In this document: positions 5,654-37,576 of the stretch, piece by piece
How the letters are laid out: each line of letters begins with the position of its first letter
How positions within the stretch are numbered: position 1 is the first letter of the stretch
Assembly (NCBI GenBank): GCA_963801355.1
Contig: CAWDEM010000008.1
Span: 1,152,001-1,216,000, forward strand
DNA length: 64,000 nucleotides
DNA from: Ignavibacteriota bacterium
GTDB lineage: Bacteria; Bacteroidota; Ignavibacteria; UBA10030; UBA6906
Direction of reading: 5' to 3'
The notes under the pieces: generated by a model
Told to the model about the DNA's origin: nothing
Databases searched by the model: none
What the model saw: the letters and a program-made list of their open reading frames with translations, nothing else
Made by a program: the position numbers and the translations under genes

Positions 5654-6253
5654 TCAATGTTCTTTGATGATACCGGTGCCGGTGGCCTGCCAGCCGGTGG
5701 GCAGTGGGTAATGATTGTTGTCAGTGGTCACCCTGAGGACGGCATTTGTAAAGATTTGCATTCCATCAATAGTCCCCCCTCTTCCGTGTCCCACCATCTT
5801 CAGAGGCAACGTGAAGACAAACGGATCAGCTGTTCTGGACCTGTATCCCTCGTAAGTACCTTCCCACGTTCCACCGCCAGCGCCTGCAGGTTTTGATGTC
5901 CACGACCCGTGGCAAGGACCCTCGCCGGTTGCAAGGTCGAGCTTAAGACTTAGCAGGTGCTCCATTCTTCCTGATACACGCGCGTCGGATGCGGTAACCA
6001 AGTCCACTATGGGTACATCCTTCATGTGCACGGTGTTTCCCGCAATCTTCAGGTATGGTGTGGGATCAACCGGAACAACTATGGGGACACTGAGGATAAG
6101 GTCGAAAGGTACATTGGTGCTCTTCTCCAGTGAAGCCGGTGTTTGTGCCGACTGGTCTGTCGGCGATACCGGCACAGCCGAGTTGTCCGAACACCCCACC
6201 ACCACAAACGCCAAGGTCGCCATCAGCAGCAAAACAAAAGAGACGGTTTTCAT
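5654..6253 (-). CDS. Hypothetical lipoprotein
   Basis: MKTVSFVLLLMATLAFVVVG-C lipobox-type signal, Ser/Pro-rich linker, beta-rich mature domain. Confidence 0.75.
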   Translation of the reverse strand: MKTVSFVLLLMATLAFVVVGCSDNSAVPVSPTDQSAQTPASLEKSTNVPFDLILSVPIVVPVDPTPYLKIAGNTVHMKDVPIVDLVTASDARVSGRMEHLLSLKLDLATGEGPCHGSWTSKPAGAGGGTWEGTYEGYRSRTADPFVFTLPLKMVGHGRGGTIDGMQIFTNAVLRVTTDNNHYPLPTGWQATGTGIIKEH

Positions 6254-6346
6254 GACTTTGCCCTTTCTGGAATGTTGTGTAATATTAGGATTGTCGCTGC
6301 CGCACATCGTCCTCCCGGTCCAGGCGAGAGGACGCGTGCGGTCGAC

Positions 6347-8512
6347 TCATTTCATGAGCACCAGTCGCTTCGTGTGTACCTCGTCCCCCGCCACCAGGCG
6401 GTAGAAATAGACCCCGCTGGAAAGTCTGAACCCATCGAACTTAGCCTCGTGATAACCTGCGCCTTGTTCCCCATTGATGAGTTCAGCGACCCGCTGACCA
6501 AGAATGTTGAAGACGGTCAAGCATACTCGTGTCCGCACTGGCAAGCCGTAGCGGATTGTCGTTGAGGGATTGAATGGGTTCGGGTAGTTCTGATGGAGCA
6601 CACAATCCCGTGGCAACTGCTGCTCGCTCTCAGCACCCGTATTCGTTTCTGACAACGACCGTCTCCAGACACCATTGCCAGCCCCGGCAAAGATGTCTGC
6701 ACCCGAGATGGCAAAGGACCTGATTGTAGTGTTCGTCAAGCCGGCATTGATACCGCTCCAGTGTGTGCCGTTGTCGGTGGAAAGGAAGACGCCCAGATTG
6801 TCAGGCGCAACGAATACCCGTGTACCGTGAGCCGTAATGGCTACAATGGACTCAGGTTGATTGCGATTCAAATTGTCCGATGGAAGTCCATTGCTCACGG
6901 CTGTCCAGCTTGTGCCGTTGTTCGTGGAGAGAAACACGCCATTGCTCCATGTCCCGGCGAAGAGATTTGTATCTGAGACCGCTAGCGAATAGATGCCTCC
7001 CGGCAGACCGGCATTGACTGCCGTCCAATGAGAGCCGTTGTCGGTGGTACGAAAGACGCTGCCGGAAATCCCGGCGAAGAGATACTGGCCTGAGACCGCA
7101 AGCGCGGAGGTAGTCGCGTTGTCCGGCAGGCCGGAATTCACTGCTGTCCAGCTCGCACCCTTGTTGGTGGAAAGACAGACACCGGCATATGTGCCGGCAA
7201 AGAGATTCGTGTCCAAGACGGCAAGAGCGAGGACAGTGGTATCCATCAGGCCGGAATTTGCGGGGGTCCAGCTCGCACCGCTGTCGGTGGAACGATAGAT
7301 CCCCGAGCCGAAAGCCATCGAACTCCTCGTGCCTGCAAAGAGATGTGACCCGATGGCAGCAAAACAACTGACATGCACAGTCTCCTCGAAATCGAGAGGA
7401 AGCCGTACCCAGGTCGAGCCATTGTCGGTCGAACGAAACATGTTTCCCTCATATGCTCCCGCCAACATCTCTGTACCGAAGAGTCCAAGGGCATAGACGG
7501 GAATGTTGAGCATCCCCGTGTTGACCTCTGCCCAACTTCCCCCGTTGTCAGTCGAGCGATAGACTCCTCGCTCGCGTGTGCCTGCGAAGATGCTCGTGCC
7601 GGAAACGGCAAGCCCCCCCACGCTGGCATTTGACGGCACACCGTCACGGAGCGCAGTCCAGCTCGTGCCATGGTCTGTCGAGAGATAGATGCCGCTGCGA
7701 TAGGTCCCTGCAAACAGATGCACACCAGCTGTCCCGCCACTTGCGGGAGAAACAGCGAGAGACCAGATATTGGTGGTCGTGAGGCCGCCATTGACCGCCG
7801 TCCAATGCGCACCGCTGTCGGTGGAGAGAAAGACCCCTGCCTGATTTGTCCCGGCAAAGAGCAACATGCCCCCTGAGCCGGCTTCACCGGGGCACACAGC
7901 AAGGCAATGGACAGAGGGATAGAAGCCGTACGGGGATCTTGGTATGCCCTCATTGACCGCAACCCAATTTGTCCCGTTGTTCGTGGAGAGGAAGACGCCG
8001 CTGGAAGTCCCGGCAAAAAGGTTGGTTCCACATTGGATCATCTGTGAGAATTCTGAGAAGGGTGTATTCGCCGGCATCCAGCCGGCGCCGTTGTCGATGG
8101 AAAGGAAGACGCCACTTCCATAGGTCGAGGCATAGAGACGGCTGCCGACGGTGGCGAGGGCACTGAGACCGGAAGCGGTAAATCCGGAAGCTACCTCCGT
8201 CCAACTTGCGCCGTTGTCGGTGGAGCGGAAGATGCTATTGAAGTAAGTTGCAGCATAGAGATTCGTGCCCGACACGGCAAGAGCGTTAACAGAGGTATTC
8301 GTTAATCCGGTATTGACCGGCGTCCAGCTTGCGCCGTTGTCGACTGCATGGAAAACACCGCCACACCGCCCCCCGGCAAAAACATCGGTTCCAATCACCG
8401 CGAAGCACGTCACCTCTCCCCCGTAGGGGCCATTCGTGGGAACCCACTGAGCACCGGAGTACGAATGACAGAGGACAGCCGCCAGTGTGAGACAGATGAA
8501 TAGAGTCTTCAT
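6347..8512 (-). CDS. BNR/Asp-box beta-propeller protein with T9SS CTD
   Basis: Signal peptide; many S-T-D/N-x-G-x-x-W repeats; QNYPNPFNP...YFYRLVAG...KRLVLMK CTD. Confidence 0.9.
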   Translation of the reverse strand: MKTLFICLTLAAVLCHSYSGAQWVPTNGPYGGEVTCFAVIGTDVFAGGRCGGVFHAVDNGASWTPVNTGLTNTSVNALAVSGTNLYAATYFNSIFRSTDNGASWTEVASGFTASGLSALATVGSRLYASTYGSGVFLSIDNGAGWMPANTPFSEFSQMIQCGTNLFAGTSSGVFLSTNNGTNWVAVNEGIPRSPYGFYPSVHCLAVCPGEAGSGGMLLFAGTNQAGVFLSTDSGAHWTAVNGGLTTTNIWSLAVSPASGGTAGVHLFAGTYRSGIYLSTDHGTSWTALRDGVPSNASVGGLAVSGTSIFAGTRERGVYRSTDNGGSWAEVNTGMLNIPVYALGLFGTEMLAGAYEGNMFRSTDNGSTWVRLPLDFEETVHVSCFAAIGSHLFAGTRSSMAFGSGIYRSTDSGASWTPANSGLMDTTVLALAVLDTNLFAGTYAGVCLSTNKGASWTAVNSGLPDNATTSALAVSGQYLFAGISGSVFRTTDNGSHWTAVNAGLPGGIYSLAVSDTNLFAGTWSNGVFLSTNNGTSWTAVSNGLPSDNLNRNQPESIVAITAHGTRVFVAPDNLGVFLSTDNGTHWSGINAGLTNTTIRSFAISGADIFAGAGNGVWRRSLSETNTGAESEQQLPRDCVLHQNYPNPFNPSTTIRYGLPVRTRVCLTVFNILGQRVAELINGEQGAGYHEAKFDGFRLSSGVYFYRLVAGDEVHTKRLVLMK

Positions 8513-8536: not shown

Positions 8537-10636
8537 CTATTTTAAAACCAGCATCCGTCTCGTTGACACGAAATCCCCAGCGCTGAGCCGGTAGAGGTAC
8601 ACACCGCTCGCGAGATTCGCCCCGTCAAACTGCACCTCGTGAACCCCTGCATCCCGTCTGTCGTTCACCAGCACGGTTACCTCCCGGCCCAGAACATCAT
8701 ACACCGCCAGCGTCACAGAGGCTGACACAGGCAACTGATACCTGATGATCGTGGTCGGGTTGAAGGGATTGGGGTAATTCTGCTCAAGAGCGAAGTGCTC
8801 TGGCAATTCGGATGATGTTTCCACAGCATCAAATGGCGATTTCGGGGGAGTAAATTCCCAGATGTCTCCTGTTCCGGAGTAGCCTCCATCCGGAGTTCCT
8901 GAAATCACATAGATCTTGTTATTATGGACAGCACCCCCAAACCAGGCGAGGGCCACTGGCATAGGATCCAGTGTCTTCCACGTATCGCTCACAGGATTAT
9001 ATACTTCTACGGTAGTCAGAGCGACGTTTTGGGTTCCGCCTATGGCATAGATCGCATCGCCAACCAGATACGTCTGAAAGCCTTGTCTTGCAGTCGGCAT
9101 ATCGGCCTTCTTCGTCCAGTTATCGGTTTGGGGATCATATGCGTAGACATTCTTCTGTGCAGTCCCGGTAGACCCGCCGCCAAATGTATAGACCAGTCCG
9201 TTGTAGACGGTCACAGCCAGCCAGCCTCCGGACTCAGGTCTTTCCTTTTTGGGTGTCCATGTATTGGTGACTGGATTATAGGCCTCACAGTTTCGTTCGG
9301 TCTCATTGCCGCCTATGTTATAGATTATTCCGTTAACCACACCGGCTTGCGCAGCCCTCCTCGGACTAAGCATATTCGCTTTTTCTGTCCAGGTATTTGT
9401 CACAGGGTTATATGCTTCCACTTTGCTTGTAGCGGTGGGGTAACCGCCGCCAATGGCATAGATGGTATCGTTCACAACAGCCGAGGAAAGAAATCCTCTG
9501 GCAGTTGGCATAGGCAATTTCACCGCCCAGGGGTTCAAATCGTACACTTCATTGGCTGCCAAATCAGTCAAGGGATAGACGGTGGTTCCCCCAATGGCGT
9601 AGATCTTCTGACCTATGACACATGCTGAAAGCGCTCCCCTCAGTGTGGGTAATGTCGTCTTCTTAGTCCATCCTCCACCTGTCAACGCCGGATCATATTC
9701 CCAGATGTCTCCCGTGCCTGTGTAGCCACCATCCGATGATCCTGAAATCACATAGATCTTGTTGTTACTGACAGCCCCTGCAAACCAGGCGAGGGCCACT
9801 GGCATAGGATCCAATGTTTGCCAGGTATCGCTCACCGGATCATACACTTCCACATTCTTCAGACTGATGCTCATTGTCTGGGTTCCACCGATGGCATAGA
9901 TCTTTCCGCCAACCAGATACGTCTGAAAGCCAAACCTTGCAGTCGGCATATCGGCCTTCTTTGACCAGTTATCGGTTTGCGGGTCATACGCATACACATT
10001 CTTCTGTGCAGTCCCAGTATACCCGCCGCCAAATGTATAGACCAGTCCGTTGTAGACGGTCACAGCCAGGTCCCCTCCGGACTCGGGTCTTTCCTTTTTG
10101 GGTGTCCATGTATTGGTACCTGGATTATATGCCTCACAGTTTCGTTCGCTCTGATTGCCGCCTATGTTATAGATTATTCCGTTAACCACACCGGCTTGCG
10201 CAGCCCTCCTCGGACTAAGCATATTCGCTTTTTCTGTCCAGGTATTTGTCACAGGGTCATATGCTTCCACTTTGCGTGTAGCGGTGGGGTAGCCGCCGCC
10301 AATGGCATAAATGGTATCGTTCACAACGGCGGAGGAAAGCCACCCTCTCGGGGTTGGCAGAGGCAATTTCACCGCCCAGGGGTTCAAATCGTACACTTCA
10401 TTGGCTGCCAAATCAGTCCAGGGATAGACGGTGCTCCCCCCAACGGTGTAGATCTTCTGACCTATGACACATGCCGAAAGCGCTCCCCTCGGTGTGGGTT
10501 GTGTCGTCTTCTTTACCCAGCGCCCATCTTGTGCCCGGGCATCAGTGTGGATCAGCACTGAGGACGCGAGAATTAGACAGCATGTCACGAGCCCCGACAA
10601 TCGTCCCGGATGACGAAACCTCGATACACGTTGCAT
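8537..10636 (-). CDS. Double Kelch beta-propeller protein with T9SS CTD
   Basis: Signal peptide; 12 Kelch repeats (IYAIGG...YDP.T..W) arranged as two near-identical six-blade units; CTD. Confidence 0.9.
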   Translation of the reverse strand: MQRVSRFRHPGRLSGLVTCCLILASSVLIHTDARAQDGRWVKKTTQPTPRGALSACVIGQKIYTVGGSTVYPWTDLAANEVYDLNPWAVKLPLPTPRGWLSSAVVNDTIYAIGGGYPTATRKVEAYDPVTNTWTEKANMLSPRRAAQAGVVNGIIYNIGGNQSERNCEAYNPGTNTWTPKKERPESGGDLAVTVYNGLVYTFGGGYTGTAQKNVYAYDPQTDNWSKKADMPTARFGFQTYLVGGKIYAIGGTQTMSISLKNVEVYDPVSDTWQTLDPMPVALAWFAGAVSNNKIYVISGSSDGGYTGTGDIWEYDPALTGGGWTKKTTLPTLRGALSACVIGQKIYAIGGTTVYPLTDLAANEVYDLNPWAVKLPMPTARGFLSSAVVNDTIYAIGGGYPTATSKVEAYNPVTNTWTEKANMLSPRRAAQAGVVNGIIYNIGGNETERNCEAYNPVTNTWTPKKERPESGGWLAVTVYNGLVYTFGGGSTGTAQKNVYAYDPQTDNWTKKADMPTARQGFQTYLVGDAIYAIGGTQNVALTTVEVYNPVSDTWKTLDPMPVALAWFGGAVHNNKIYVISGTPDGGYSGTGDIWEFTPPKSPFDAVETSSELPEHFALEQNYPNPFNPTTIIRYQLPVSASVTLAVYDVLGREVTVLVNDRRDAGVHEVQFDGANLASGVYLYRLSAGDFVSTRRMLVLK
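8850..10525 (-). repeat. Intragenic tandem duplication (2 x about 0.84 kb)
   Basis: About 8850-9672 and about 9693-10525 align with long identical DNA stretches. Confidence 0.9.
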
Positions 10637-10697: not shown

Positions 10698-10832
10698 ACC
10701 CAAAAAGAGTGCCAACGAACATTTGCAGGGTTGCTTTGGCAACAAGCCTTTACTCAATGCGCACTTACGGCTTAAACGAGGTTGAGCGAATCAGGTGTGC
10801 GAATGCCCTCCTGAGCTCGTCAATCTTGACGA
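10698..10832 (-). promoter_or_regulatory. Candidate sigma54 promoter plus palindromic upstream activator site
   Basis: Minus strand TTGGCAC-TCTTT-TTGG (about 10715-10700; -12 element deviates from TTGC). Palindrome TCGTCAA-TC-TTGACGA at 10817-10832 lies about 105-120 bp upstream. Confidence 0.45.
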
Positions 10833-11019: not shown

Positions 11020-13245
11020 CTACCACCCTGCCGCCTTGAGGTACTCCTGGAAGCGCGGATCTTCACGAACATTTCGCCATTCCGGATCCACGTTGAGGAA
11101 GTGCAATTTGGGATCGCGTTCCTGAACCGATGTGCCCACCCAGGCCAGGGCCTCTTCCTGTTTTCCCGCATGGGCAAACAGAATGGCAATATCATAGGGA
11201 GAAACGTACTGGTGCCTGTAGATTTCAGCCATCGTGGAGGCAGCCGCTCCAAAGGCATGGTCAACCCCAGCCTTCTCCATTGCCTCTGCAACGATCTTTG
11301 CACCTGCCGCAGCAAAGACTTTCTTGCACACCTCTACAGCCTCTGCCGTTCTTCGTACGAAGGCATACGTCCGCCACAGGAACCACAGCCCCCAAAGGAA
11401 GGGAGGGTTCGCCTCCGAGTACCTGGAAATCCTCTCGAGCACCCGGTCATACTTGGCGCTGTAGAAATCAGGAAAGGCAACGCACAGTCCGATATAATCG
11501 GACAACGGATCAAGCGTTTGGGCTCTCCCGGCAAGTTTTCTCGCGTACTCAAATTCTCCCATGGACACTCGATTAATACTATAGTTGCGCAGCGCGATCG
11601 TATCATTGGGATCCAGTTCCAGACTTCGCTCGTATGCCGCTTCTGCCTCAGCATGCTTCCATTCCATACAAGCTGTGAACAAGCCCAAAACGTGATGTGC
11701 TAGTGAGATATTTGGATCTAATTCAAGCGCCTTTTGAACGTACTTTTTCATAAGAGGCTTCACTTCCGCACTTCTCTTCAAACCAAAGTATGTGAGGCCA
11801 AAATAGCAGCCCACAAGCCCCGCGTAGGCCGGCGCAAAGTTGGGGTCCTTCTCGATAGCCTGATGGAAGTACGCGATCGATTTGTCAACAATGCCGAGAT
11901 CGATCTGATTGAAAAAGTAGTATCCTTGTTGATAGTAGTTATAGGCTTCCAGGTTGTCGGTATACCTCTTGAACAGCTTTTGACGCTCATCTTCAAGAAG
12001 CTTGACTTTCAAAGCAGCCGCTATTGCGAGCGAGATTTGTTCCTGTAGATCGAACATGTCCTCGAGCCGACGGTCGTAGCAGTCGGACCAGAGGTGATAG
12101 CCATCCATGACGTTGATGAGCTGAGCCGTGATGCGGAGCAGGTCGCCGGATTTCCTCACGCTTCCTTCGAGCACCGTTCTCACATCCAGCTTCCTTCCAA
12201 CCTTCCGCACATCATGCCCTCCTCCCTTGAAGGCAAACGCAGATGTGCGGGCGACAACCTTCAAATCGCTTATCCTGGAGAGCGTAGTGATCAGCTCTTC
12301 CGTCAAGCCATCGCAGAACAACTCCTGTTCAGGAGCCGCGCTCAGATTGACAAACGGGAGCACAGCAATGGATTGGGATGGCACCGGCGCAGGCAGCTCA
12401 AACCGTTCCGTCCGCTTCTCATGCAGATCTGCAATGCTCCTTATGTCCTGGAGCAGAGACGCCATGTCGTCATACCGGTCTTCCCTCTCCTTTGCCATGG
12501 ATTTTTCCACGATCGCGAGCAAAGTTTCTGGAATGTCTTCCCGCAGTTTCCGCAGATTCTCAGGTTCCTGATTCAGAATCAGATACACCATTCCCTGTTC
12601 GTAATCTGCCTGAAACGGAGGTTTCCCTGCTACCATCTCGTACAGGGTCACGCCCAACGACCAGATGTCGGTCCTCTGGTCTACCCGTTCTCCTTTTATC
12701 TGTTCGGGCGACATATAGTCTACGGTCCCGAATTTCGTACGCTCCTTCGTGAACTGTGTCCGATCCTTTCGCTTGGCAAGTCCGAAGTCCAGGAGCTTCA
12801 CGCTGCCGTCCTCCGTGATGAAGATATTGGCAGGTTTGACGTCCCTGTGCACGATCCCGTTCTCGTGTGCCTTCTTCAATCCTTCGGCGGTCTGTCTCGC
12901 AATATCGAGGATCTCCTTCACTTCGAGCGTGCCACGACGTATCCTCTGCTTCAGCGTTTCTCCTGTGTAGTAGTCCATCGCGATGAACAGCTGCCCGTCG
13001 GGAGTCTCGTCAATCTCGTGAATCGTGCAGATGTTGTTGTGCTGGAGCGATGAGGCACTTTGGGCTTCAAGGATGAAACGCCGCTTGGATTCCTCGTCTT
13101 GCGTGAAGGATTCCGTCAAGACCTTGAGAGCAACAGTGCGTTTGAGTTTCAGATCCTCGGCGCGGTAGATGACTCCCATGCCGCCTTCCCCGAGCTTCTC
13201 GAGGATCTTGTAGTGGGAAAGTGTCTTGTCGACGAGGGATGCCAT
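11020..13245 (-). CDS. Soluble Hanks-type Ser/Thr kinase with TolB-like and TPR domains
   Basis: GEGGMG, VALK, HRDVKPAN, DFGLAK, GTVDYMSPEQ; SIAVLPFVN TolB-like domain; TPRs; no TM helix. Start moved to MASLVDK. Confidence 0.92.
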   Translation of the reverse strand: MASLVDKTLSHYKILEKLGEGGMGVIYRAEDLKLKRTVALKVLTESFTQDEESKRRFILEAQSASSLQHNNICTIHEIDETPDGQLFIAMDYYTGETLKQRIRRGTLEVKEILDIARQTAEGLKKAHENGIVHRDVKPANIFITEDGSVKLLDFGLAKRKDRTQFTKERTKFGTVDYMSPEQIKGERVDQRTDIWSLGVTLYEMVAGKPPFQADYEQGMVYLILNQEPENLRKLREDIPETLLAIVEKSMAKEREDRYDDMASLLQDIRSIADLHEKRTERFELPAPVPSQSIAVLPFVNLSAAPEQELFCDGLTEELITTLSRISDLKVVARTSAFAFKGGGHDVRKVGRKLDVRTVLEGSVRKSGDLLRITAQLINVMDGYHLWSDCYDRRLEDMFDLQEQISLAIAAALKVKLLEDERQKLFKRYTDNLEAYNYYQQGYYFFNQIDLGIVDKSIAYFHQAIEKDPNFAPAYAGLVGCYFGLTYFGLKRSAEVKPLMKKYVQKALELDPNISLAHHVLGLFTACMEWKHAEAEAAYERSLELDPNDTIALRNYSINRVSMGEFEYARKLAGRAQTLDPLSDYIGLCVAFPDFYSAKYDRVLERISRYSEANPPFLWGLWFLWRTYAFVRRTAEAVEVCKKVFAAAGAKIVAEAMEKAGVDHAFGAAASTMAEIYRHQYVSPYDIAILFAHAGKQEEALAWVGTSVQERDPKLHFLNVDPEWRNVREDPRFQEYLKAAGW

Positions 13246-27764: not shown

Positions 27765-30700
27765 CTAACCGCGTTTTAGTTTCACCAATCTTGCCCTTGC
27801 GTCCGCCGGCTCCTTGTAGATCGGGTCGGCTTTCCCCCAGATTTTGAGAAACTTTTCGTGCTCGGTGACAGCTTTCTCCTTCATCCCCGCCTGTTCGTAG
27901 ACCAGTGCCAGCCGGTAGTGGTAGCGCGGGATGATCGGGAAGAAGGGTTCGACTTCATGGGAGACTGCTCTCTCGTATGCGGCGATGGCACTATCCAGGT
28001 TCCCCAGCGCGACATAGGCCCGGGGATAGGGATCCTGAGGGAGCGGAAGTACCCGAAACTGGACCGCGACCCCGCTTTTCAAGACGTCTGGTCGACTCGC
28101 CCCGTAATGCATCTGGCGTACTGCGGGCATAGCTTCCAACGCTTCAGCAGGACGACCACGTTTCAGGAGCAACTCTCCGCGTAGCAACCCTCCCAGCTCG
28201 GTGTAGTTTGCCTTCACGAAACCTACGCTACCCAGCGTTGAATCAGCAGACTTGTACGGAGAAGCCAGTTTGTCGATCAGCGACAGTCTCGACTCCACCG
28301 AATCGAGCTGCCCTGCCTTCATATCCATGAATCCAAGGAAGAAGTTGAGTTTGATTTGTCTTGCCGCAGTTAGCGCGGTATCAAGAGTAAAGGAGCGGCT
28401 TCTGGTCCACCATGAACGAAGAAGATCACGCGCTTCTTTCACTTTGTCCCGATCGCACAGAATCCACGGTTCGATAGGATCCACGGTTTGTTCGACTTTG
28501 TGATGTTCGTCTCTCAATCCCGCGCTGACCATCAGCTTTTGGGCAGCCCGCAGTTCTCCCTCCGCATCCTTGACTCTTCCCAACCAGAAGAGGTAATACG
28601 CCTTCGCACTCATCTGGTTGGCGCGAATCGCGGGTGCGGGAGAGATCACGATTGAACTGTCGACCCATCGGAGGGCTTCGCTGTAGTCTTCTCTATTGAA
28701 GCTGATCCTGGCGATGCTCATGGCTGACGAAACGAAATCCGGCTTCACCGCGAGCGATTGCTTGTACGCATCGATCGCCTCTGCTTCCTTACCGTTGTAC
28801 GTATATATATCTCCCATACTGTCATACGGATTGGCGTTGCCCGGGTGCGCAGACATGTATCTCTTCAGTGTCTCGATGGCCTTTGCGAGCTCGCCTTTGG
28901 CGTTGTATTCATACGCGAGCATGTTCAGGGCGCCCGCCGATCTGGGATCGAGCTCCAGTGTCTTCGTGTAGGCTGCGATTGCTTCGTCAGTGAGGCCTCG
29001 AGCCGAAAGTGAGAAACCGAGGACCTCCCAAAACTCCTTTTCTCTCGGAAACCGTTCCGTGGCATATCTGCTAAACTCCAGGTCGTCGATGGATCTTCCT
29101 CCCATCACCTCTCTCCTGGCAACCGTATCGTACATGGCGATCAAAAGTCTTTCCTTCTCTGTGGCTTTCAGGGCCAGTGATCTCACTTTCTTCCTGCATA
29201 ACTCTATTGCACTTTCGTCCCCCATTACCTCGCATGCCGTCTTCAGCCAGATCCACGCCATGACGAAATTAGAATCGTGCTTCACTGCCAGCTCGAGGCT
29301 TGGTCTGCCATGCACCCAGTCGGCATCGTCGGTTTTTTCCCGTGCGGCCAGGTAGATCTGGTAGGCCTCGGGCGAGCTTGTGGTCACATCCGCGATCGGT
29401 CGCAGCGTCTCTTCCGTAGTCTTGCGTCTGATCCCGAATCCATTTGAGATGTCTTTGCTCAGCTTATCGATCTGCGTGAGGAGGTAGCTCTCTACACCCT
29501 GACCATTTGCGGTGCACGTATTCAACGGTTGAAGCGTTGCAGTATTCACGAGCCTCGCCGTTGTTGCAAACAGGTCCCCTGCTTTCGTGTAACTCCCTTC
29601 CACAATCACCTCGGCTCCCTCCCTCCGGCACAACTCCAGCCCCAGCGAGTGATCTACCCGTTCTGTCCCCTGCTTCCCCATCTGTTTCAGAAGATCCGTG
29701 ATCCTCTGCCGGGTCACCACCCGGAAGTACTTCGACTGCTCAAGACTCGTGATCAGTTGATCCTGAATCGAGATCTGCAAGTTGTCAAGGTCACTACTCC
29801 CCGTCTGGTTTTCGAATGGGAGAATGAGGATCGTCTTAGGGTTCGAGGCAAGAGCACTCTCCTGCAGAACGGGGGAGAGGAGGAGATACGCGACAGCGGC
29901 AATCACCACAATAGCGGCTCCTATGCCGACCCTCACCAGTGTTCTTCGTCGCGCAGCCTTCTTCGCCAGTTGTCCAGCAAGCGTCACCCCGCCAGTCTCT
30001 TCGCCCCCCTTGACAGCTTCCAGATCTGCAAGCAACTCATCAGCCGTTTGGTACCTTGCCTCCGGCTCCTTTGCCAGAGCCTTCTGGACAATCTGCTCGA
30101 GTGATAGAGAGATACCGGGCCTGACCTGACCCGGTGGAGGTGGTTCCTGATTCAGAATGGCGTACAGGAGGGCTTGTTCATTTTCGAATTTGAATGGAGC
30201 GCGGCCGGTGAGCATCTCGTAGAGCACCACGCCCACAGACCAGAGGTCAGATCTCTGATCAACGGCCTCACTCCTGGCCTGCTCCGGTGACATATAGGCA
30301 GCCGTTCCCAGTGTGGTGCCAGTCCTTGTGAGGCGTGTCTGTCCGGCAAGCTTTGCCAGTCCGAAGTCAAGAACCTTCACCTCGCCCCGTTTGGTGAGCA
30401 TGATATTGGCCGGTTTGATATCCCGGTGAATGATGCCGGCCTCGTGGGCACGCGAAAGCCCTCGACAGATCTGCACTGCAATATCGATGGCACGGTCGAC
30501 GCTCAGAGGGCCATGCTCGAGCGCATCCTTGAGCGTTTCACCCTCATAGAAATCCATGCAAATGAACAACTGGTCGTCGGTAGTCTCGCCAATGTCGTGG
30601 ATGGTGCAGAGATTGGCGTGCTGCAGTGCGGAGGCAGCCTGTGCTTCGTGCAGGAGCCGTTGCTTCGCCTCAGGGTCCAGTGTAAACTCTGGAGGGAGAA

Positions 30701-30824
30701 ACTTGAGGGCGACAGTACGCTTGAGTGCGGTGTCCTCGGCCTTATAGACCACGCCCATTCCGCCACCGCCCAACCTCTCGATGATCCTGTAATGCGAGAT
30801 CACCTGGCCGATTCTGACACTCAT
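27765..30824 (-). CDS. Receptor-like Ser/Thr kinase (kinase-TM-TolB-like-TPR)
   Basis: HRDIKPAN, DFGLAK, YMSPEQ; TM helix VGIGAAIVVIAAVAYLLL; ILILPFENQTG; TPRs; conserved tail. Confidence 0.92.
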   Translation of the reverse strand: MSVRIGQVISHYRIIERLGGGGMGVVYKAEDTALKRTVALKFLPPEFTLDPEAKQRLLHEAQAASALQHANLCTIHDIGETTDDQLFICMDFYEGETLKDALEHGPLSVDRAIDIAVQICRGLSRAHEAGIIHRDIKPANIMLTKRGEVKVLDFGLAKLAGQTRLTRTGTTLGTAAYMSPEQARSEAVDQRSDLWSVGVVLYEMLTGRAPFKFENEQALLYAILNQEPPPPGQVRPGISLSLEQIVQKALAKEPEARYQTADELLADLEAVKGGEETGGVTLAGQLAKKAARRRTLVRVGIGAAIVVIAAVAYLLLSPVLQESALASNPKTILILPFENQTGSSDLDNLQISIQDQLITSLEQSKYFRVVTRQRITDLLKQMGKQGTERVDHSLGLELCRREGAEVIVEGSYTKAGDLFATTARLVNTATLQPLNTCTANGQGVESYLLTQIDKLSKDISNGFGIRRKTTEETLRPIADVTTSSPEAYQIYLAAREKTDDADWVHGRPSLELAVKHDSNFVMAWIWLKTACEVMGDESAIELCRKKVRSLALKATEKERLLIAMYDTVARREVMGGRSIDDLEFSRYATERFPREKEFWEVLGFSLSARGLTDEAIAAYTKTLELDPRSAGALNMLAYEYNAKGELAKAIETLKRYMSAHPGNANPYDSMGDIYTYNGKEAEAIDAYKQSLAVKPDFVSSAMSIARISFNREDYSEALRWVDSSIVISPAPAIRANQMSAKAYYLFWLGRVKDAEGELRAAQKLMVSAGLRDEHHKVEQTVDPIEPWILCDRDKVKEARDLLRSWWTRSRSFTLDTALTAARQIKLNFFLGFMDMKAGQLDSVESRLSLIDKLASPYKSADSTLGSVGFVKANYTELGGLLRGELLLKRGRPAEALEAMPAVRQMHYGASRPDVLKSGVAVQFRVLPLPQDPYPRAYVALGNLDSAIAAYERAVSHEVEPFFPIIPRYHYRLALVYEQAGMKEKAVTEHEKFLKIWGKADPIYKEPADARARLVKLKRG

Positions 30825-30987: not shown

Positions 30988-33900
30988 CTATAAGCGCCTC
31001 AATCTGGCCAGCCTTGCCCTCGCATCCGCCGGCTCCTTGTAGATTGGGTCGGCCTTCCTCCAGATCTTCAGGAACTTCTCATATTCGGCGATGGCTTTTG
31101 TGTTCAACCCTTTCCGTTCGTACACCTGGGCCAGTCGGTAGTGGTAACGGGGGAAGATCGGCCAGTCACAGAGCGAATGGTCGACCGCCCTTTCGTACGC
31201 TGCCACAGAGCTGTCGAGCTGACCCAGGGCAAGGTATGCCCGGGGCAATTGGTCGACCATGATAGGCATGAAGAACCCATGTGGGCGGACCTCTTGAACG
31301 CCGGGGAAGAACGCCCATCCCAACGCCCAGACAGGCCCGCTCGCGAGGTCGCGAGGATCATCTCTTGGTCTAGCGGCCACTGCTTCCTGGATGCGACCAG
31401 CTGTCATGAGCCATTCACTCCGCAACCGGAGGCTGTACTTTTGGTAGTACGAAATGATGAGCCTGGCTGGATTCGTCGTGTCGGCCGGGGGGATCTGTGC
31501 ACGTATGCTATCCATTCCTGCAAGATGGGTGGCGGCGGAATCCATCCTCCCTTCTCCGATATCAATGAAGCCGCGGCATATCTGAACAAACAACTCCCGG
31601 GTACGACGATTTCCTCTACGACCCCGTTGTTCATAATAGGCTGCCCACGAATCGAGTGCGCGCCGGCTCTGGGCGAATTGTCGCCGTTCGTAGGCAATCC
31701 AAATGTCGAGGAAGTTGAGCCCATATTCGACGTGCTGACCGGCTCTGACCAGTATCGCATCGTGCTTCGCGAGCAATCTCTCCGCTTCGTTCAGCCTCCC
31801 CCGCCAGAAGGCGACGAGGGCGCGTTCCCACATCTGGCCTGCCTGATTTCCGGGACCCGTGCCCCTGGCGGCGGAGGTGTCCACCCACTGAAGTGCGGTA
31901 TCGTACTCTTCCTTTGTGAAATGGTACCACATGATCTTCTCCGCTGACACAAACCAGTTGGGTTTCACCGCCAGAGCTTGTTTGTAACTCGATATTGCCT
32001 CATCATACATTCGTCTTTCCGCATAAATATCACCCATCGAGTCATACACGTTCGCTTCACCCGGTGAGGCGATTGCATAGCGCTTGAGCATCTCGATCGA
32101 CTTGTCCCACTCCCCCTTGTCCGCATACATGTATGGAAGGTTGGCCAATGCCAGTCCGTACGTGGGATCAAGCTCCAGAGCATTTTTGAGGATAGCAATT
32201 GCCTCGTCGATGTCGATTTTCCAGAGGAGCATTGCCAGACGCCAGAGGAATTCTTTGTCCTGCGGAAATCGTCGCACGCAAAGCCTGGCAAACTCCAGGT
32301 CAGTAAGGCCGGGCAATCCCAGCAGTCTAGCGCGCACCGAGCTGTCGGCATACTCGGCTATGTGGTATCTTTCCGTCTCGCTCGCCCTCCCTGCCAGAGA
32401 TATAGCCCTATTGGAAGCCTCCTTGGCAGCCCTCGGGTCTTCGCTGAGCACCCCCACCGCCCACCAAGCTATGGCAAAGAGGGAGTCCTTTTGCACTGCC
32501 ATCTCCATGAAATGACGCGTGTCAGCGATGTGGAACTTCTCCCACTCCTGCATACCGCGCAAGTAGAGTTGATACGCTTCCATGGAGGTCGTGGTGATCT
32601 CTGCCACCGGCCGGATCGTCTCTTCAGTCCGCCGTTCTGATACACCGATTCCCCGGGAGACTTCCCGGCTGAGATCATCGATCTGGTTCTCCAGAAGGCT
32701 CTCCACACCTTTCCCGCTGGTAGCATACGTCTTCGCCGTCTCCAGCGTGTTGACATCCACGAGCTTGAGAGTTGTCCGGTACAACTCCCCGGCACTGGCA
32801 AATGTCCCCACCGCCATCAGCTGGGCACCTTCCCTCCGACAGATTTCCAGACCAAGCTCGTTGTCCACGTACTCCACATCCTTCTTCCCCATCTGCTTCA
32901 ATATGTCTCTCATCCGCTGCCGTGTTGTGACACGGATGTACTTCGACTGCTCCAGGCTGGTAATGATGGCATCCTGAAGAACATTCCGGATATGATCCTG
33001 GGATTTGTCTCCTGTCTGGTTCTCGAAGCTTATGACGGCGATCGTCTTGGGATTGGAGGCCAGGAGTTGATCCTGCACGATGGGCCAGATGACAAACAGA
33101 GCCAGGAGAATCAAAGCCACGGCTGCAAGCGAGATGATGCACTGTTTGATGAATCGTCTTCGCTTCTTTTTCTGTACGGCCTCCGCGGCGGCAATCGTCC
33201 CCCCGGTCTCATCCACTCCCCGTGCCACACGAAGATCGGAGAGGAGTTGTTGCGCGGACTGATACCGCTCTTGCGGGTTCTTTGCCAGGGCCTTCCCGAC
33301 AATCTGCTCCAACGACTCGGGCGCTTCTGTGCGCAGCTCCCGCAGCGGCTTAGGCTCCTCGTTGAGGATCGAATAGACCAGCGCTTGTTCGTAGTCGCTC
33401 TCAAATGGTCTCTTGCCCGTGAGCATCTCGTAGAGTGTCACGCCAAGCGACCAGATGTCGGTGCGGCTATCCAATGCCTCGCTCCGCGCCTGCTCCGGCG
33501 ACATGTAGGCCGCAGTCCCCATCGTTGTCCCGGTCTTGGTCAGCAGTGTCCGACCGGAAAGCTTGGCCAGACCGAAGTCCAGGATCTTCACCTCGTCGTG
33601 TGCCGTGAGTATGATGTTGGCGGGTTTGATGTCACGGTGGACAATCCCCGCCTCATGGGCACGGGAAAGTCCCGAGGCAACCTGGATGGCAATGTCCATC
33701 GCCTGATCGATCTCCAGGGGTCCCCGCTCGATCTTCCTCTTCAGAGTCTCCCCATCATAGCAGGCCATTGCAATGAAGAGCTGCCCATCGGCCGTTTCAC
33801 CGATCTCATGAATGTTGCAGATATTGGGGTGGTCAAGTGCCGAAGCGGCTTGGGCTTCGTGGCCGAACCGTTCTTTGGCGTCGGGATCGGTGTTGAGGGA

Positions 33901-34032
33901 AGGAGGGAGGAACTTCAGGGCGACAGGGCGGTCGAGCGTGAGGTCCTGGGCCTTGTAGACCACGCCCATTCCGCCGCCGCCGAGGCGCTCGATGATCTTG
34001 TAGTGGGAGATCGTCTGACCGATGAGCATCAT
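30988..34032 (-). CDS. Receptor-like Ser/Thr kinase (kinase-TM-TolB-like-TPR)
   Basis: Intact kinase motifs; KKKRRR then TM helix; IAVISFENQTG; TPRs; conserved tail. Confidence 0.92.
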   Translation of the reverse strand: MMLIGQTISHYKIIERLGGGGMGVVYKAQDLTLDRPVALKFLPPSLNTDPDAKERFGHEAQAASALDHPNICNIHEIGETADGQLFIAMACYDGETLKRKIERGPLEIDQAMDIAIQVASGLSRAHEAGIVHRDIKPANIILTAHDEVKILDFGLAKLSGRTLLTKTGTTMGTAAYMSPEQARSEALDSRTDIWSLGVTLYEMLTGKRPFESDYEQALVYSILNEEPKPLRELRTEAPESLEQIVGKALAKNPQERYQSAQQLLSDLRVARGVDETGGTIAAAEAVQKKKRRRFIKQCIISLAAVALILLALFVIWPIVQDQLLASNPKTIAVISFENQTGDKSQDHIRNVLQDAIITSLEQSKYIRVTTRQRMRDILKQMGKKDVEYVDNELGLEICRREGAQLMAVGTFASAGELYRTTLKLVDVNTLETAKTYATSGKGVESLLENQIDDLSREVSRGIGVSERRTEETIRPVAEITTTSMEAYQLYLRGMQEWEKFHIADTRHFMEMAVQKDSLFAIAWWAVGVLSEDPRAAKEASNRAISLAGRASETERYHIAEYADSSVRARLLGLPGLTDLEFARLCVRRFPQDKEFLWRLAMLLWKIDIDEAIAILKNALELDPTYGLALANLPYMYADKGEWDKSIEMLKRYAIASPGEANVYDSMGDIYAERRMYDEAISSYKQALAVKPNWFVSAEKIMWYHFTKEEYDTALQWVDTSAARGTGPGNQAGQMWERALVAFWRGRLNEAERLLAKHDAILVRAGQHVEYGLNFLDIWIAYERRQFAQSRRALDSWAAYYEQRGRRGNRRTRELFVQICRGFIDIGEGRMDSAATHLAGMDSIRAQIPPADTTNPARLIISYYQKYSLRLRSEWLMTAGRIQEAVAARPRDDPRDLASGPVWALGWAFFPGVQEVRPHGFFMPIMVDQLPRAYLALGQLDSSVAAYERAVDHSLCDWPIFPRYHYRLAQVYERKGLNTKAIAEYEKFLKIWRKADPIYKEPADARARLARLRRL

Positions 34033-34421: not shown

Positions 34422-37400
34422 CTATCCTCGTTTCAACTTGGCCAATCTCGCCCTTGCATCCGCCGGCTCCTTGTAGATCGGGTCGGCCTTTCCCCAGATC
34501 TTCAGAAATTTCGTGTACTTCTCGATCGCCTTCTCCTTCATCCCTTTCTGTTCGTACAGGTTGGCGAGACAATAGTAGTATCGGGGGATGATGGGACACA
34601 GGTAATCGATCTTCTTGTCCACAGCCCATTCGTACGCGATGATGGCGCTGTCGAGCATCCTACGCTGCAGAAAGGCCTGCGGCACAATGTCGGAGGGTGC
34701 GGGCACCCAGAACGCCTGCATGTTAAGCGGCCTTGGACCGTCCCAGGGGTGGCCAGGTCTGCTCGCCAAGCCGTGCGACCGTTCGAGTTCTGTCGGCCAG
34801 CTCAGGCATCCCTCACCCCAGTTTGCATCGATCTCTCCAGGTCGTCCTGCAGCAAGAAGGTATCCCGCTCTCAATGCCTTCCCGTAGAAGTTGAACTGCA
34901 GTGGAATCTCGATGGAATCAGTAAAACCTCTGGCCAGCTTGGCCGTCGATCCCATTTCTGCAAGGCGGGCTTCGACAGAATCCATCTTCCCCTGCTTCAG
35001 ATCGACAAGTCCCAAGCAGTACTCCACGAACATTCTGTTCATCGGGGCTTCTTCCGTGGGGGGATACTTTTGCGCCCATCTCTGCAACAGGGTCCGGGCT
35101 TTGTCCCAAGCCCCGCGCTCGTATGCAATCCAGGCCTCCAGCCAATGCACGTCTGGGGACTTTTCCAAGCCGCGAAGTTCCCTTTCAGCTTCGTTCATCC
35201 GTCCCAGCCACACAAGGGTGTAGGCTCGCCACCAGGGATCTCGGACCCGATCAAACCAGGCAATCGCCTCATCGTACTCTTCCTTCAGGAAATGGAGTTG
35301 ACCGATCGTTGCATCTACGCCACGGATGCGTTTGGGATCCACCTCGGACGCTCTCTCAAACTGAGCAATGGATTCATCAAACCTTCCTGCGTACCAGAGA
35401 CATTCTCCCATGGTGTCGAAAGGTTCTGCTTCTCCCGGGGCGTAAAGGGAGTACTGCCTGCATGCTTCGATCGCCTTCTCGATCTGGTTGGACCACAGAT
35501 ACGCATACGCCAGCAAATTCCAGGACTGAAGGATCACGGGAGCTGCTGCAGTGAAATGTTCGGCGGCTTCGGTGAAGCGCCGCCGGAACAGCAACAAAAA
35601 GCCTAGGTTTTGGTGAGCCCATGCATCGTCGGGGAATCTCTGCAAGCATGTCTGCCAATACGCAATCCAGTTCGTCTTCACAGGTTCTCCTATGAGCTTC
35701 GCCTGAAGTATCGGATCGTACGGGGCAATATGCCATTGCTCCCGTTCCGATGCTCGAGATGCGTACTGGACCGCTCGCTGGATCGCCGGTTGTATGCCGC
35801 TCGTGTCTCCTGAGTCAAACTTTGCGACATAGTGGCGTGCCCAGGAGAGGAAGCGCCATCCAGAGGCGAACGTTGAATCGTATTTGACGGCCAGCGCGAA
35901 ATTGCGTTCTGCTTCTCTATAGTGCAGCCTCGCATACTCGTACTCTCCGCGCACATAAAAATTGTAGGCGTCTGTCGAACTCGTTGTCACCTGCTGGACA
36001 GGCTTCAATGACGCCCCCGTGCTCCACCGGGATACGCCAAGACCTCGGGAGATCTGCTTTGCGAGTTCATCGACTTGCGTCATCAGGATACTTTCCACAC
36101 CGTGACCATTTGCGCGGAGCGATTGCATCAACGGCGCTCCGTTATTCACATCGACGACCTGGACGTTGGTCAGAAACAAATTTCCCGCCTTCGTAAACGT
36201 TCCCACGCCGAGCGCGTGAACGCCAGCCCTGCGACAGAGCTCAAGGCCGGTCTCCTTGTCGATGAAATCGAGATTTCCTTTCCCCATCCCTGTCAAGAGC
36301 CCGCGAATCCGGTCCCATGTCATCACCCGGAAGAATTTCGATTCGTCCAGACTTGCGGTCAGGAGACTGGGGATTGAGGTCTGCAGATTGTCATATGACC
36401 TGTCACCTGTCTGGTTCTCAAAGCTCATGAAGGCGATCGTCACCGGGTTCGATGCGATGGCTTGATCCTGAAAAAGCGGCGCCAGGATGAATGCGCCTGC
36501 GACGAGCACGAGAATTACAGCTCCGGCGACGGCGAATCCGCGGACGTGCCTCTTCCTTCTCTTTCTTTCCATCGCCTCCGCGACTGCAATCGTGCCGCCT
36601 GTGTCCGCTGTACCGCGGGTGATTTTCAGATCCGACAACAGCTCATTGACCTTTTGATAGCGTTCCTCTGGGTTCCTGGCGAGGGCTTTGGTAACGATCT
36701 GATCAACGACTTCGGGGATTTCGCTTCTCAACGACCTGGCCGGCTTTAGCTCTTCATTCAATATCGAATACACAAGGGCTTGCTCGTAGTCGCTCTTGAA
36801 GGGGAGTTGCCCGGTGAGCATCTCATACAGCACAACCCCCAGCGACCAGATGTCCGTCCTGTGATCGACGGGCTCGCCCCGTGCCTGCTCGGGGGACATG
36901 TAGGCCGCTGTGCCCATAGTACTCCCGGTCTTTGTCAGCATCGACTGCCCGGAAAGCTTGGCCAGACCAAAATCGAGTATCTTGACCTCGCTATGGTTCG
37001 TGATGAAGATGTTCGCCGGTTTGATGTCGCGGTGAACGATGCCCGCCTCATGGGCTCGCGCCAATCCCTCAGCGATCTGGATCGCGATATCCAGTGCGAG
37101 ATCAATGTCCAGAAAACCCTGTTCTATGGTCTTCTTCAGTGTCTGGCCTTCATAGCAGGCCATGACGATGAACATCTGACCGTCGTCGGTGTCGCCGATT
37201 TCGTGGATGGTGCAGATGTTGGAGTGGTCCAGGGCCGAGGCAGCGCGGGCTTCGTGGATGAAGCGTTCTTGCGCTCCGGGGTCAAGGGTGAGAGTAGGAG
37301 GGAGGAACTTTAGTGCGACGGTTCGTTTGAGTGTGGTATCCTCGGCCTTGTAGACGACTCCCATGCCGCCTTCGCCGAGCTTTTCGAGGATCTTGTAGTG

Positions 37401-37430
37401 GGATAGTGTATTGCCGATGAGGGATGCCAC
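34422..37430 (-). CDS. Receptor-like Ser/Thr kinase (kinase-TM-TolB-like-TPR)
   Basis: GTG start with GGAGGAG RBS; intact kinase motifs; RKRRKR then TM helix; TPRs; conserved tail. Confidence 0.92.
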   Translation of the reverse strand: MASLIGNTLSHYKILEKLGEGGMGVVYKAEDTTLKRTVALKFLPPTLTLDPGAQERFIHEARAASALDHSNICTIHEIGDTDDGQMFIVMACYEGQTLKKTIEQGFLDIDLALDIAIQIAEGLARAHEAGIVHRDIKPANIFITNHSEVKILDFGLAKLSGQSMLTKTGSTMGTAAYMSPEQARGEPVDHRTDIWSLGVVLYEMLTGQLPFKSDYEQALVYSILNEELKPARSLRSEIPEVVDQIVTKALARNPEERYQKVNELLSDLKITRGTADTGGTIAVAEAMERKRRKRHVRGFAVAGAVILVLVAGAFILAPLFQDQAIASNPVTIAFMSFENQTGDRSYDNLQTSIPSLLTASLDESKFFRVMTWDRIRGLLTGMGKGNLDFIDKETGLELCRRAGVHALGVGTFTKAGNLFLTNVQVVDVNNGAPLMQSLRANGHGVESILMTQVDELAKQISRGLGVSRWSTGASLKPVQQVTTSSTDAYNFYVRGEYEYARLHYREAERNFALAVKYDSTFASGWRFLSWARHYVAKFDSGDTSGIQPAIQRAVQYASRASEREQWHIAPYDPILQAKLIGEPVKTNWIAYWQTCLQRFPDDAWAHQNLGFLLLFRRRFTEAAEHFTAAAPVILQSWNLLAYAYLWSNQIEKAIEACRQYSLYAPGEAEPFDTMGECLWYAGRFDESIAQFERASEVDPKRIRGVDATIGQLHFLKEEYDEAIAWFDRVRDPWWRAYTLVWLGRMNEAERELRGLEKSPDVHWLEAWIAYERGAWDKARTLLQRWAQKYPPTEEAPMNRMFVEYCLGLVDLKQGKMDSVEARLAEMGSTAKLARGFTDSIEIPLQFNFYGKALRAGYLLAAGRPGEIDANWGEGCLSWPTELERSHGLASRPGHPWDGPRPLNMQAFWVPAPSDIVPQAFLQRRMLDSAIIAYEWAVDKKIDYLCPIIPRYYYCLANLYEQKGMKEKAIEKYTKFLKIWGKADPIYKEPADARARLAKLKRG

Positions 37431-37576
37431 GGCAGCTCCTCCCCTCCGGGATGTGTGTGCCGGCAACATACGCCGGAGAAGGGGAAAATGCAAGGGTGTC
37501 TGATTTGTAGATTACGCGATTGTACCTCATCCGAAAATCACACAACTGCTTCGTAAATTTCGAGAACAACTCGCCG

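Follow-up and report, generated by a model that had tools for sequence, protein, structure and literature searches.

Uptake loci of the Bacteroidota type are controlled by hybrid two-component sensors (HTCS), by SusR-like or LacI-type regulators, or by regulators of the extracytoplasmic function (ECF)/anti-sigma type. Among the described systems, the Bacteroidota polysaccharide utilization locus (PUL) with its HTCS is functionally closest to the locus that we report here. The latter was found in the genome of an Ignavibacteriota bacterium (GenBank assembly GCA_963801355.1), in a window of 64,000 nucleotides (contig CAWDEM010000008.1, positions 1,152,001 to 1,216,000; 'the window' refers to this whole stretch, and positions count from its first letter). 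It comprises 13 genes on the minus strand that form one co-oriented run between positions 5654 and 37493 (Table 1). In the order of transcription these encode three membrane kinases of ~1020 amino acids (aa; K1023, K1014 and K1019), a TonB-dependent receptor (TBDR), a protein of 1092 aa, an outer-membrane barrel of the PorV/PorQ family, a fourth membrane kinase of ~1030 aa (K1032), a kinase of 743 aa (K743), a GAF/sigma-54 activator, a kinase of 747 aa (K747), a Kelch-repeat protein, a BNR protein and a lipoprotein. We propose, with moderate confidence, that the kinases occupy the sensor/regulator position of a SusD-less uptake locus, of which the receptor, the 1092-aa protein and the barrel (hereafter the triad) form the transport part. 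An initial annotation of this DNA had proposed a single relay of six kinases in the island. In that form the idea was not supported. The conserved unit is smaller and consists of the triad and one membrane kinase, encoded directly after the barrel.

The argument is carried by the genes that flank the triad in related organisms. The family sampling was widened to 68 genomes searched; the relatives are mostly fragmented metagenome-assembled genomes (MAGs) and, being related, do not represent independent samples. In a tree of the barrel proteins (IQ-TREE, 22 rows) the window formed a clade with G002, G005 and G012 (support 100/99), which was joined by G067 and G068 upon wider sampling (FastTree, 31 rows). 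The fragmented barrel of a further member, G013, was left out of both trees; the TBDR of this genome is 72% identical to that of the window. A kinase gene directly follows the barrel gene in six of the seven genomes of the clade (the window, G005, G012, G013, G067 and G068), which represent five genera. These kinases start 15-220 nt after the barrel gene, share 35-60% protein identity and bear a transmembrane (TM) segment, the contig of G068 ending 180 codons into the gene, before the position of that segment. The initial annotation had named chance accretion as the alternative to be checked by neighbourhood analysis, and the outcome was divided: the triad and the membrane kinase are linked in six of the seven genomes, whereas none of the other genome records examined showed the three upstream kinases ahead of its TBDR. 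Since a kinase was kept after the barrel within the clade, the ancestral unit would be the triad with one receptor kinase, expanded in the window and in G013. The six-kinase array is thus best seen as a lineage-specific expansion around this unit and not as one obligatory cascade. In G013 the order is TBDR, homologue of the 1092-aa protein, barrel, kinase, kinase, GAF activator, kinase. A kinase tree (FastTree, 36 rows, topology only) united the triad-linked kinases of the relatives and the four membrane kinases of the window in one clade, with K1019 paired to the first and K1032 to the second kinase of G013. The G013 orthologue of K1019 is 70-82% identical, fragmented and placed after the barrel gene; that of K1032 is 60% identical. 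In the same genome the genes for the 1092-aa homologue, the barrel and the first kinase are split over several frames (L019:14992-19291; L019:19542 to L020:2644) beside an intact TBDR, second kinase and activator, a pattern of either partial decay or indel errors in the assembly.

We consider the exchange that has taken place in the seventh genome, that of the congener G002, the most telling result. Its DNA is 92% identical to that of the window over 5.8 kb of the triad, and the identity stops 10 nt after the stop codon of the barrel gene (window position ~20412). The next gene, 32 nt on, encodes a protein of 1431 aa with Reg_prop, Y_Y_Y, HisKA, HATPase_c, Response_reg and HTH_18 domains (L001:5848-10140), which we take to be a canonical HTCS of the Bacteroidota PULs. 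By its domains this gene classifies as an HTCS, and Pfam found no HTCS in the island. A 5-kb contig from a freshwater-sediment run leaves the window sequence at 20424 and presents the G002-type junction in a second assembly, perhaps not independent of the MAG, and another related metagenome contig bridges the start of the TBDR into the 3' end of K1019. A copy of the G002 HTCS, ~70% identical in DNA, is also encoded elsewhere in the genome of the window (C8:5421-9557). In the triads of the sister clade (the one at C4:1278k in the same genome, and those of G003 and G004) a Reg_prop/Y_Y_Y/His_kinase sensor and a LytTR regulator are encoded directly upstream of the TBDR, in all three loci with enough flank, and a Reg_prop/Y_Y_Y histidine kinase likewise precedes the TBDR of G013. 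Taken together, the clade, its sister clade and G002 indicate that the flanks of the cassette hold periplasm-sensing regulators and that in the clade of the window this regulator is a Hanks-type kinase. The presence of a kinase in one and of an HTCS in the other of two congeners constitutes a natural comparison. Downstream of the paralogous triad under histidine-kinase control, at a distance of 5 kb, a gene encodes a fusion of an FHA domain and an SLT transglycosylase (C4:1289937-1291394, L025:4938-6395); being a transglycosylase, its product was set aside as a regulator.

In a direct comparison, the island shares with the PUL and its HTCS a SusC-like receptor with a CarboxypepD_reg-like domain, accompanied by a surface protein and by a sensor in the inner membrane whose periplasmic domain is large; in G002 the same position holds a canonical HTCS. 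Likewise, the paralogous cassettes of the island carry carbohydrate-active enzymes (CAZymes) and LacI or RpiR regulators. In contrast to the PUL, the island lacks the SusD lipoprotein (no SusD-like family was found by Pfam in any scanned open reading frame (ORF) of the window), and the partner of the receptor is a beta-sandwich protein with a type IX secretion system (T9SS) tail, together with the PorV/PorQ-family barrel. In place of the HTCS stands a Hanks-type Ser/Thr kinase, which carries an ectodomain of tetratricopeptide repeats (TPR) and belongs to another enzyme class. The TBDR remains far below the cut-off of the NCBIfam SusC/RagA family (TIGR04056, 54 bits versus 368, over the N-terminal 135 residues only). 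The locus therefore falls outside the SusC/RagA PULs sensu stricto; nonetheless, the domain architecture of its TBDR is SusC-like.

For the other two proteins of the triad a precedent exists in the PorQ-PorZ complex and in the PorP-like anchoring of type B cargo, as described in the literature. Similar to PorQ-PorZ and PorV-PorU, the island pairs a barrel of the PorV/PorQ family with a protein that aligns to the C-terminus of PorZ. The difference is that about a dozen such paralogous pairs exist, this one included, each linked to a TonB receptor and located outside the secretion machinery. The barrel had at first been labelled PorV. It indeed belongs to the PorV/PorQ family (NF033709, 174.3 bits versus a cut-off of 90), but scored below the equivalog cut-offs of PorV (68 versus 250), PorQ (84 versus 220) and PorV2 (66.5 versus 325). 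A similar qualification applies to the 1092-aa protein, which had been called a T9SS cargo and has no match in Pfam: its tail can be aligned to the PorZ C-terminus (E 5.5e-10), but with 21.2 bits remains under the TIGR04183 cut-off of 23. It is likely to be a T9SS cargo just below the family threshold. In comparison, the Kelch, BNR and CotH-like neighbours clearly carry the Por_Secre_tail domain (TIGR04183/PF18962). In its AF2 model (pLDDT 77), the 1092-aa protein consists of beta-sandwich domains arranged in a chain. Foldseek placed PorZ (5m11) on top, followed by multi-domain matches of the Ig/FN3 type with low TM-scores and without an enzyme fold; the confident partial matches include sandwich domains of GH94 and of dextran dextrinase. 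The neighbours in the ESM Atlas are all clusters of hypothetical proteins. By likeness to PorQ-PorZ, the barrel would hold the 1092-aa protein at the cell surface, and if it does so the principle of a cargo with its own anchoring barrel reaches beyond the secretion machinery.

The triad is a recurring unit. It was found adjacent and in the same order in 17 of the 18 loci around relatives of the 1092-aa protein and in two further copies in the genome of the window. A search for related loci in genome contigs with the 1092-aa protein returned two loci only; the further relatives came from a search of the genomes. Within the same genome, tblastn with the triad proteins yielded, on contig C4, two triads that are close paralogues (38-54% identity), and a dozen more distant, co-located matches to the TBDR and the PorV family. 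Upon annotation of 12 such distant regions the order TBDR, protein of 700-1230 aa, PorV-family barrel was recovered in 10-12 of them (the partial ones being variably counted), and the large proteins often bear the same kind of divergent T9SS-type tail. The neighbours of these cassettes are telling: a LacI regulator with an alpha-amylase and a CBM20 T9SS protein, a LacI regulator with a GH94 phosphorylase and a glucoamylase-like T9SS protein, a GH28 enzyme with an esterase, an alginate lyase with a KDPG aldolase, a dehydrogenase and an MFS transporter, and an RpiR regulator with S9 and S51 peptidases. In our reading, the triad is an uptake cassette of the outer membrane that resembles a PUL without SusD, and one of a large family within this genome. 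A cassette with this SusD-less design of TBDR, T9SS-tailed protein and PorV-family barrel was not found described in the literature searched. If the reading is true, the cassette explains how substrates are captured in those bacteria of this group that lack SusD.

The six kinases were characterized on basis of motifs, topology and phylogeny. Six ORFs of the island matched Pkinase in Pfam (PF00069, E 1e-51 to 1e-56). The VALK lysine, HRD(I/V)KPAN, DFG and SPE are present in all of them, and the alignment also shows the glycine loop GxGGMGV(V/I). By fold and motifs they are Hanks-type (eukaryote-like) Ser/Thr kinases with a predicted activity. Several observations in the initial annotation were thereby borne out: Pfam and the motif alignment confirm six co-oriented kinases with intact catalytic motifs within 26 kb, all on the minus strand, TM-TPR kinases flank the triad at less than 100 bp (49 nt between K1019 and the TBDR, 61 nt between the barrel and K1032), and the two soluble kinases bracket the activator (a 4-nt overlap with K743, a gap of 22 nt to K747). 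Topology was judged by hydropathy alone. The four proteins of ~1020 aa contain a single stretch of strong hydrophobicity at residues ~295-345 (Kyte-Doolittle 19-mer 2.5-3.0), so that four of the six kinases have the receptor-type layout of a cytoplasmic kinase, one TM segment and an extracytoplasmic sensor. K743 and K747, with 19-mer maxima of 1.1, do not have this layout; their gap in the alignment corresponds exactly to the TM segment of ~37 residues, and the domain that follows is retained. The AlphaFold model of the K1032 ectodomain (pLDDT 79.5, pTM 0.72) shows an alpha/beta domain of ~120 residues and then a long TPR superhelix. Foldseek found TPR scaffolds as its neighbours, the TPR domain of O-GlcNAc transferase among them, and phmmer against the PDB with the ectodomain and with the C-terminal part of K743 returned generic TPR proteins only.

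The genome of 4.8 Mb contains 31 Pkinase matches, mostly in arrays of two or three. Six kinases within 26.5 kb compare with ~0.17 expected (a Poisson probability of ~3e-8 by our own arithmetic), an excess that arises from tandem paralogy, considering pairwise identities of 43-52% among the membrane kinases and of 74% between the soluble ones. Since the clustering reflects duplication it is uninformative on function, and conserved adjacencies elsewhere form the informative question. K743 and K747 are, judged by their alignment, a recent duplicate pair, and the kinase tree places them as sister to a TM-less kinase at C8:703-708k. The latter belongs to a paralogous pair (C8:703090-708406) in which a membrane TPR kinase of 1011 aa, a member of the triad-linked kinase clade, is followed after 49 nt by the TM-less kinase of 745 aa. 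This pair and the one in the island together indicate that a membrane-plus-soluble kinase pair was duplicated as a pair. A third kinase is encoded at C8:711724 and a SpoIIE-type phosphatase (717153-717728) ~9 kb downstream, with no triad or activator nearby. A role of the kinases in anti-phage defence was rejected on the scores with MADS6 (167-184 bits versus a cut-off of 460) and BREX PglW (74-92 versus 990).

Three groups of described systems resemble the kinase part of the island. PASTA kinases monitor wall precursors, and FHA or phosphatase partners are common in Ser/Thr signalling clusters. PknB-type PASTA kinases gave the best NCBIfam match for all six kinase domains (313-346 bits versus a cut-off of 450) and share with the membrane kinases of the island the cytoplasmic kinase, the single TM segment and the extracytoplasmic sensor. 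They differ in the sensor, which in the island has no PASTA repeats and consists of the alpha/beta domain and the TPR superhelix. In the FecA-FecR-FecI system, the gene of a TonB receptor lies beside that of a single-pass inner-membrane regulator with a periplasmic domain. The island has the receptor next to a single-pass regulator in common with it, but the receptor lacks the STN domain and no anti-sigma/ECF sigma pair stands next to it in the window. In Myxococcus xanthus, Pkn8 phosphorylates Pkn14 and Pkn14 phosphorylates MrpC (PMC6213207). In the island, genes for membrane and soluble Hanks kinases are likewise accompanied by one for a transcription factor, and the duplication of the membrane and soluble kinases as a pair fits this precedent by analogy. 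The transcription factor is, however, a GAF/sigma-54 activator instead of a Crp/Fnr protein. Moreover, the soluble kinases are paralogous to the membrane ones but have no TM segment, and the genes are linked to an uptake cassette. In agreement with the initial annotation, no described system that combines an uptake triad with receptor kinases was found in the full-text literature, most subscription-only journals being outside the search.

The activator matched PF00158 (1e-65) and PF02954 (2e-11), carries GAFTGA at residue 266 and occurs in a genome with rpoN (one Sigma54_DBD match). These features define it as a predicted bacterial enhancer-binding protein. Full-length orthologues with 46-53% identity were found only in G013, in G010 (two copies) and on the metagenome contig L067. 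With that of the window these make five loci, and the activator directly follows a kinase gene in three of them, namely in the window, in G013, where it comes after the K1032 orthologue, and in G010:C261, where there is an overlap with the end of the gene for an 803-aa TM kinase from another subfamily. On L067 (1926-6077) the activator (53% identity) lies between a T9SS cargo and another CarboxypepD_reg/Plug/OMP_b-brl_3 receptor, which hints at a tie between this activator family and TBDR genes, even at loci without a visible kinase. L067 was the only orthologue in a metagenome scan with generic AAA+ patterns, in which 79 of the 80 loci were generic activators and three of the 80 had a kinase domain anywhere in the flanks. 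With respect to the target genes, a gap of 383 nt separates K747 from the Kelch gene, and the sole sigma-54-like candidate in the intergenic DNA of the island, TGGCAC-N5-TTGG, precedes the latter; it has GG in place of the expected -12 GC, and such matches occur in the window at chance level (35 found versus 31 expected). Other organisms may have a different output. ECF sigma factors under the control of Ser/Thr phosphorylation exist, and in G012 an ECF-type sigma factor (Sigma70_r2 and r4_2, L015:4765-5400) is encoded 270 nt past the triad-linked kinase and ahead of a protein with a Metal_resist domain. This factor could be an alternative output for the same kind of kinase.

The explanation that we favour can be phrased as follows. 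The 1092-aa beta-sandwich protein, exported by the T9SS, would capture a substrate at the cell surface, held there via its C-terminal domain by a dedicated barrel of the PorV/PorQ family, and the SusC-like TBDR would import what is captured. The alpha/beta and TPR ectodomain would sense something periplasmic, most simply the imported product, and this would activate the cytoplasmic kinase domain. The likeliest outputs in this genome would be the paralogous soluble kinases K743 and K747 and, encoded between them, the GAF/sigma-54 activator, which could drive the triad or the downstream Kelch/BNR operon. In its most complete form the proposal adds Hanks receptor kinases with TPR ectodomains, as one more class, to the cognate sensors of uptake loci in Ignavibacteria-like bacteria. 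It holds that they are interchangeable with HTCS over a short evolutionary distance, that they feed here into a relay of membrane kinase, soluble kinase and GAF/sigma-54 activator, and that these loci lack SusD and use a T9SS-delivered, barrel-held binding protein. We put this combination forward only tentatively. If true, control by Ser/Thr receptor kinases adds a new regulatory logic to uptake loci, and the bacterial kinases with TPR ectodomains gain a concrete, testable input.

A number of observations weigh against a sensor role of the kinases or against parts of the relay. The four congeners (93-97% complete) have neither a K1032 orthologue above 60% identity nor a full-length orthologue of the activator, and with the HTCS of G002 this makes the kinases dispensable for the triad itself. 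Outside the clade no kinase was seen in the flanks of 28 triads (16 with several kb per side and 12 with 1.5 kb, of which that of G041 was extended to 12 kb downstream). Moreover, the related genomes are kin, and the six of seven may count as a single ancestral event. The linkage of kinase and activator in relatives, which had been taken as a check of the relay, held in the three loci listed above and failed elsewhere: G067 and G012 have the kinase without an activator within the flanks seen, and at two of the five activator loci (G010:C18 and L067, the latter with an upstream flank of only 1.9 kb) no kinase was seen. The GAF domain suggests control of the activator by a small molecule, for which no kinase would be required. 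No sigma-54-like site was found upstream of the triad or of any kinase. As noted at first, family scans detected no FHA protein and no phosphatase of the PP2C type in the window, which sets the island apart from FHA-coupled signalling; the whole genome has two FHA matches, both on C4, no PP2C or PP2C_2 match, and 11 SpoIIE matches, none of them in the window and the nearest ~6.5 kb to its left. Finally, the locus contains no clear CAZyme, except for the BNR protein that barely exceeds one NCBIfam cut-off.

Several of these points would be expected if the island were a paralogue hotspot, in which independent sensors were gathered by tandem duplication, at most one of them is tied to the triad, the activator responds to nothing but the ligand of its GAF domain and the T9SS cargo genes nearby play no part. 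We regard this as possible though rather unlikely. It agrees with the arrays of two or three in which most of the 31 genomic kinases occur, with the pairwise identities of 43-74% that indicate local duplication, with the lack of synteny of the three upstream kinases in G013, G067 and G012 and with the congeners that are devoid of the kinase/activator block. Adjacency to T9SS tails is equally uninformative, as the genome has ~201 such loci, one per 24 kb, and 45% of random 18.8-kb windows hold one, compared with 16 of the 24 kinases outside the window. A hotspot, however, leaves unexplained why a kinase was kept after the barrel in six of the seven genomes of the clade, across five genera and at 35-60% protein identity, why an HTCS fills precisely this position in the seventh, and why the adjacency of kinase and activator recurs in two other genera with different kinase subfamilies.

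It is improbable that the kinases serve envelope or secretion control instead of nutrient sensing, with TPR ectodomains that watch unanchored cargo, peptidoglycan or the biogenesis of the outer membrane and tune the output of surface proteins. The T9SS cargo genes around the island (CotH-like, BNR and Kelch), the commonness of protein binding among TPR domains and the T9SS-tail gene within ~9 kb of the said 16 of 24 other kinases are in line with such a role, but this enrichment over the 45% background is weak and non-independent, the specific conserved partner of the kinase is the TBDR triad, and the alternative occupants of its position (HTCS and Reg_prop histidine kinases) are generally regarded as nutrient sensors.

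HTCS sensors bind imported oligosaccharides and are not known to contact the transporter. A direct trans-envelope relay, in which the occupied TBDR touches the periplasmic TPR domain through its N-terminal domain in the style of FecA-FecR and the signal passes from the membrane kinases via the soluble kinases and the activator to the secreted Kelch and BNR proteins, is very improbable, given that no STN/secretin-TonB signalling domain was among the Pfam matches of the TBDR as in FecA-type receptors, that the soluble kinases are absent from the G067, G012 and G013 versions, that the sigma-54-like site lacks the -12 GC and that the kinase can be exchanged for an HTCS. It would accord with the gaps of less than 100 nt on either side of the triad, the periplasmic CarboxypepD_reg-like N-terminal domain of the TBDR, the long TPR scaffold of a protein-binding type, the membrane-plus-soluble pair that was duplicated as such, the imperfect site upstream of the Kelch gene and the documented Pkn8/Pkn14/MrpC cascade (PMC6213207). 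A co-fold of the K1032 ectodomain (residues 335-1032, 9 rows) with the N-terminal domain of the TBDR (24-130, 14 rows) scored 0.00 versus a mark of 0.32 and, run without controls, counts neither way.

Table 1. Genes and other features of the island (window positions) and the regions with related cassettes in the same genome (contig positions). Genes were called by a simple longest-ORF routine, which leaves the start codons uncertain, notably the TTG starts of 34422-37493 and 11020-13263; that of K1023 is probably ~20 codons too far upstream.
Feature	Position (strand)	Characteristics
K1023, membrane Ser/Thr kinase	34422..37493 (-)	Pkinase 5e-53, TPR families, one TM segment (~320-338), predicted periplasmic alpha/beta domain
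K1014, membrane Ser/Thr kinase	30988..34032 (-)	Same architecture as K1023 (Pfam, hydropathy, motifs, alignment)
K1019, membrane Ser/Thr kinase	27765..30824 (-)	Directly upstream of the TBDR
SusC-like TonB-dependent receptor	24761..27715 (-)	Signal peptide, CarbopepD_reg_2, Plug, OMP_b-brl_3 barrel (Pfam)
1092-aa secreted multi-beta-sandwich protein	21467..24745 (-)	T9SS-type C-terminal domain; proposed surface capture protein
PorV/PorQ-family outer-membrane barrel	20422..21444 (-)	NF033709; proposed dedicated anchor of the 1092-aa protein
K1032, membrane Ser/Thr kinase	17262..20360 (-)	Conserved gene in the regulator position after the barrel gene
K743, soluble Ser/Thr kinase	14809..17040 (-)	No TM segment; alpha/beta domain and shorter TPR region kept
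GAF/AAA+/HTH_8 sigma-54 enhancer-binding protein (predicted)	13286..14812 (-)	Pfam GAF_2, Sigma54_activat, AAA_lid_14, HTH_8
K747, soluble Ser/Thr kinase	11020..13263 (-)	74% identical to K743
Imperfect sigma-54-like site	10699..10714 (-)	TGGCAC-N5-TTGG, ~60 nt upstream of the Kelch gene start
Kelch-repeat T9SS cargo	8537..10636 (-)	Kelch_1 7e-94, Por_Secre_tail; candidate downstream target operon
BNR/sortilin-type T9SS cargo	6347..8512 (-)	F510_1955-family glycosylhydrolase, NF045728 177.9 bits versus cut-off 175
217-aa predicted lipoprotein	5654..6307 (-)	Matches no known family
Cassette regions, contig C8	189-207k, 1005-1022k, 1602-1619k, 1963-1982k, 2101-2118k, 2495-2512k, 2700-2735k, 2866-2881k	With those on C4, loci L024, L026, L055-L066
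Cassette regions, contig C4	1056-1076k, 1209-1223k, 1268-1288k	

The surroundings of the island are rich in secreted proteins as well. A strong terminator-like hairpin (5574-5551) is found past the lipoprotein gene. On the other side, 83 nt upstream of K1023, a T9SS cargo of 1551 aa is encoded (37577-42232, minus strand), with three lamin-tail domains, a CotH kinase-like domain, a chitobiase C-terminal-like domain and a beta-helix; it has one paralogue, 34% identical, at C4:856-859k. Five further genes for BNR/Ycf48-like propellers follow on the same strand (42309-46766, 49574-51490 and 52745-56732), four of which have T9SS tails, and between them lies a polyphosphate-related pair of genes with a VTC domain and DUF4956 (46717-48177, minus strand). 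An ORF of 156 aa on the plus strand (62677-63147) corresponds to no more than the end of a sigma-54 activator, with AAA-lid and HTH_8; it is 32% identical to residues 358-499 of the activator of the island and probably represents a gene remnant or a mis-called start.

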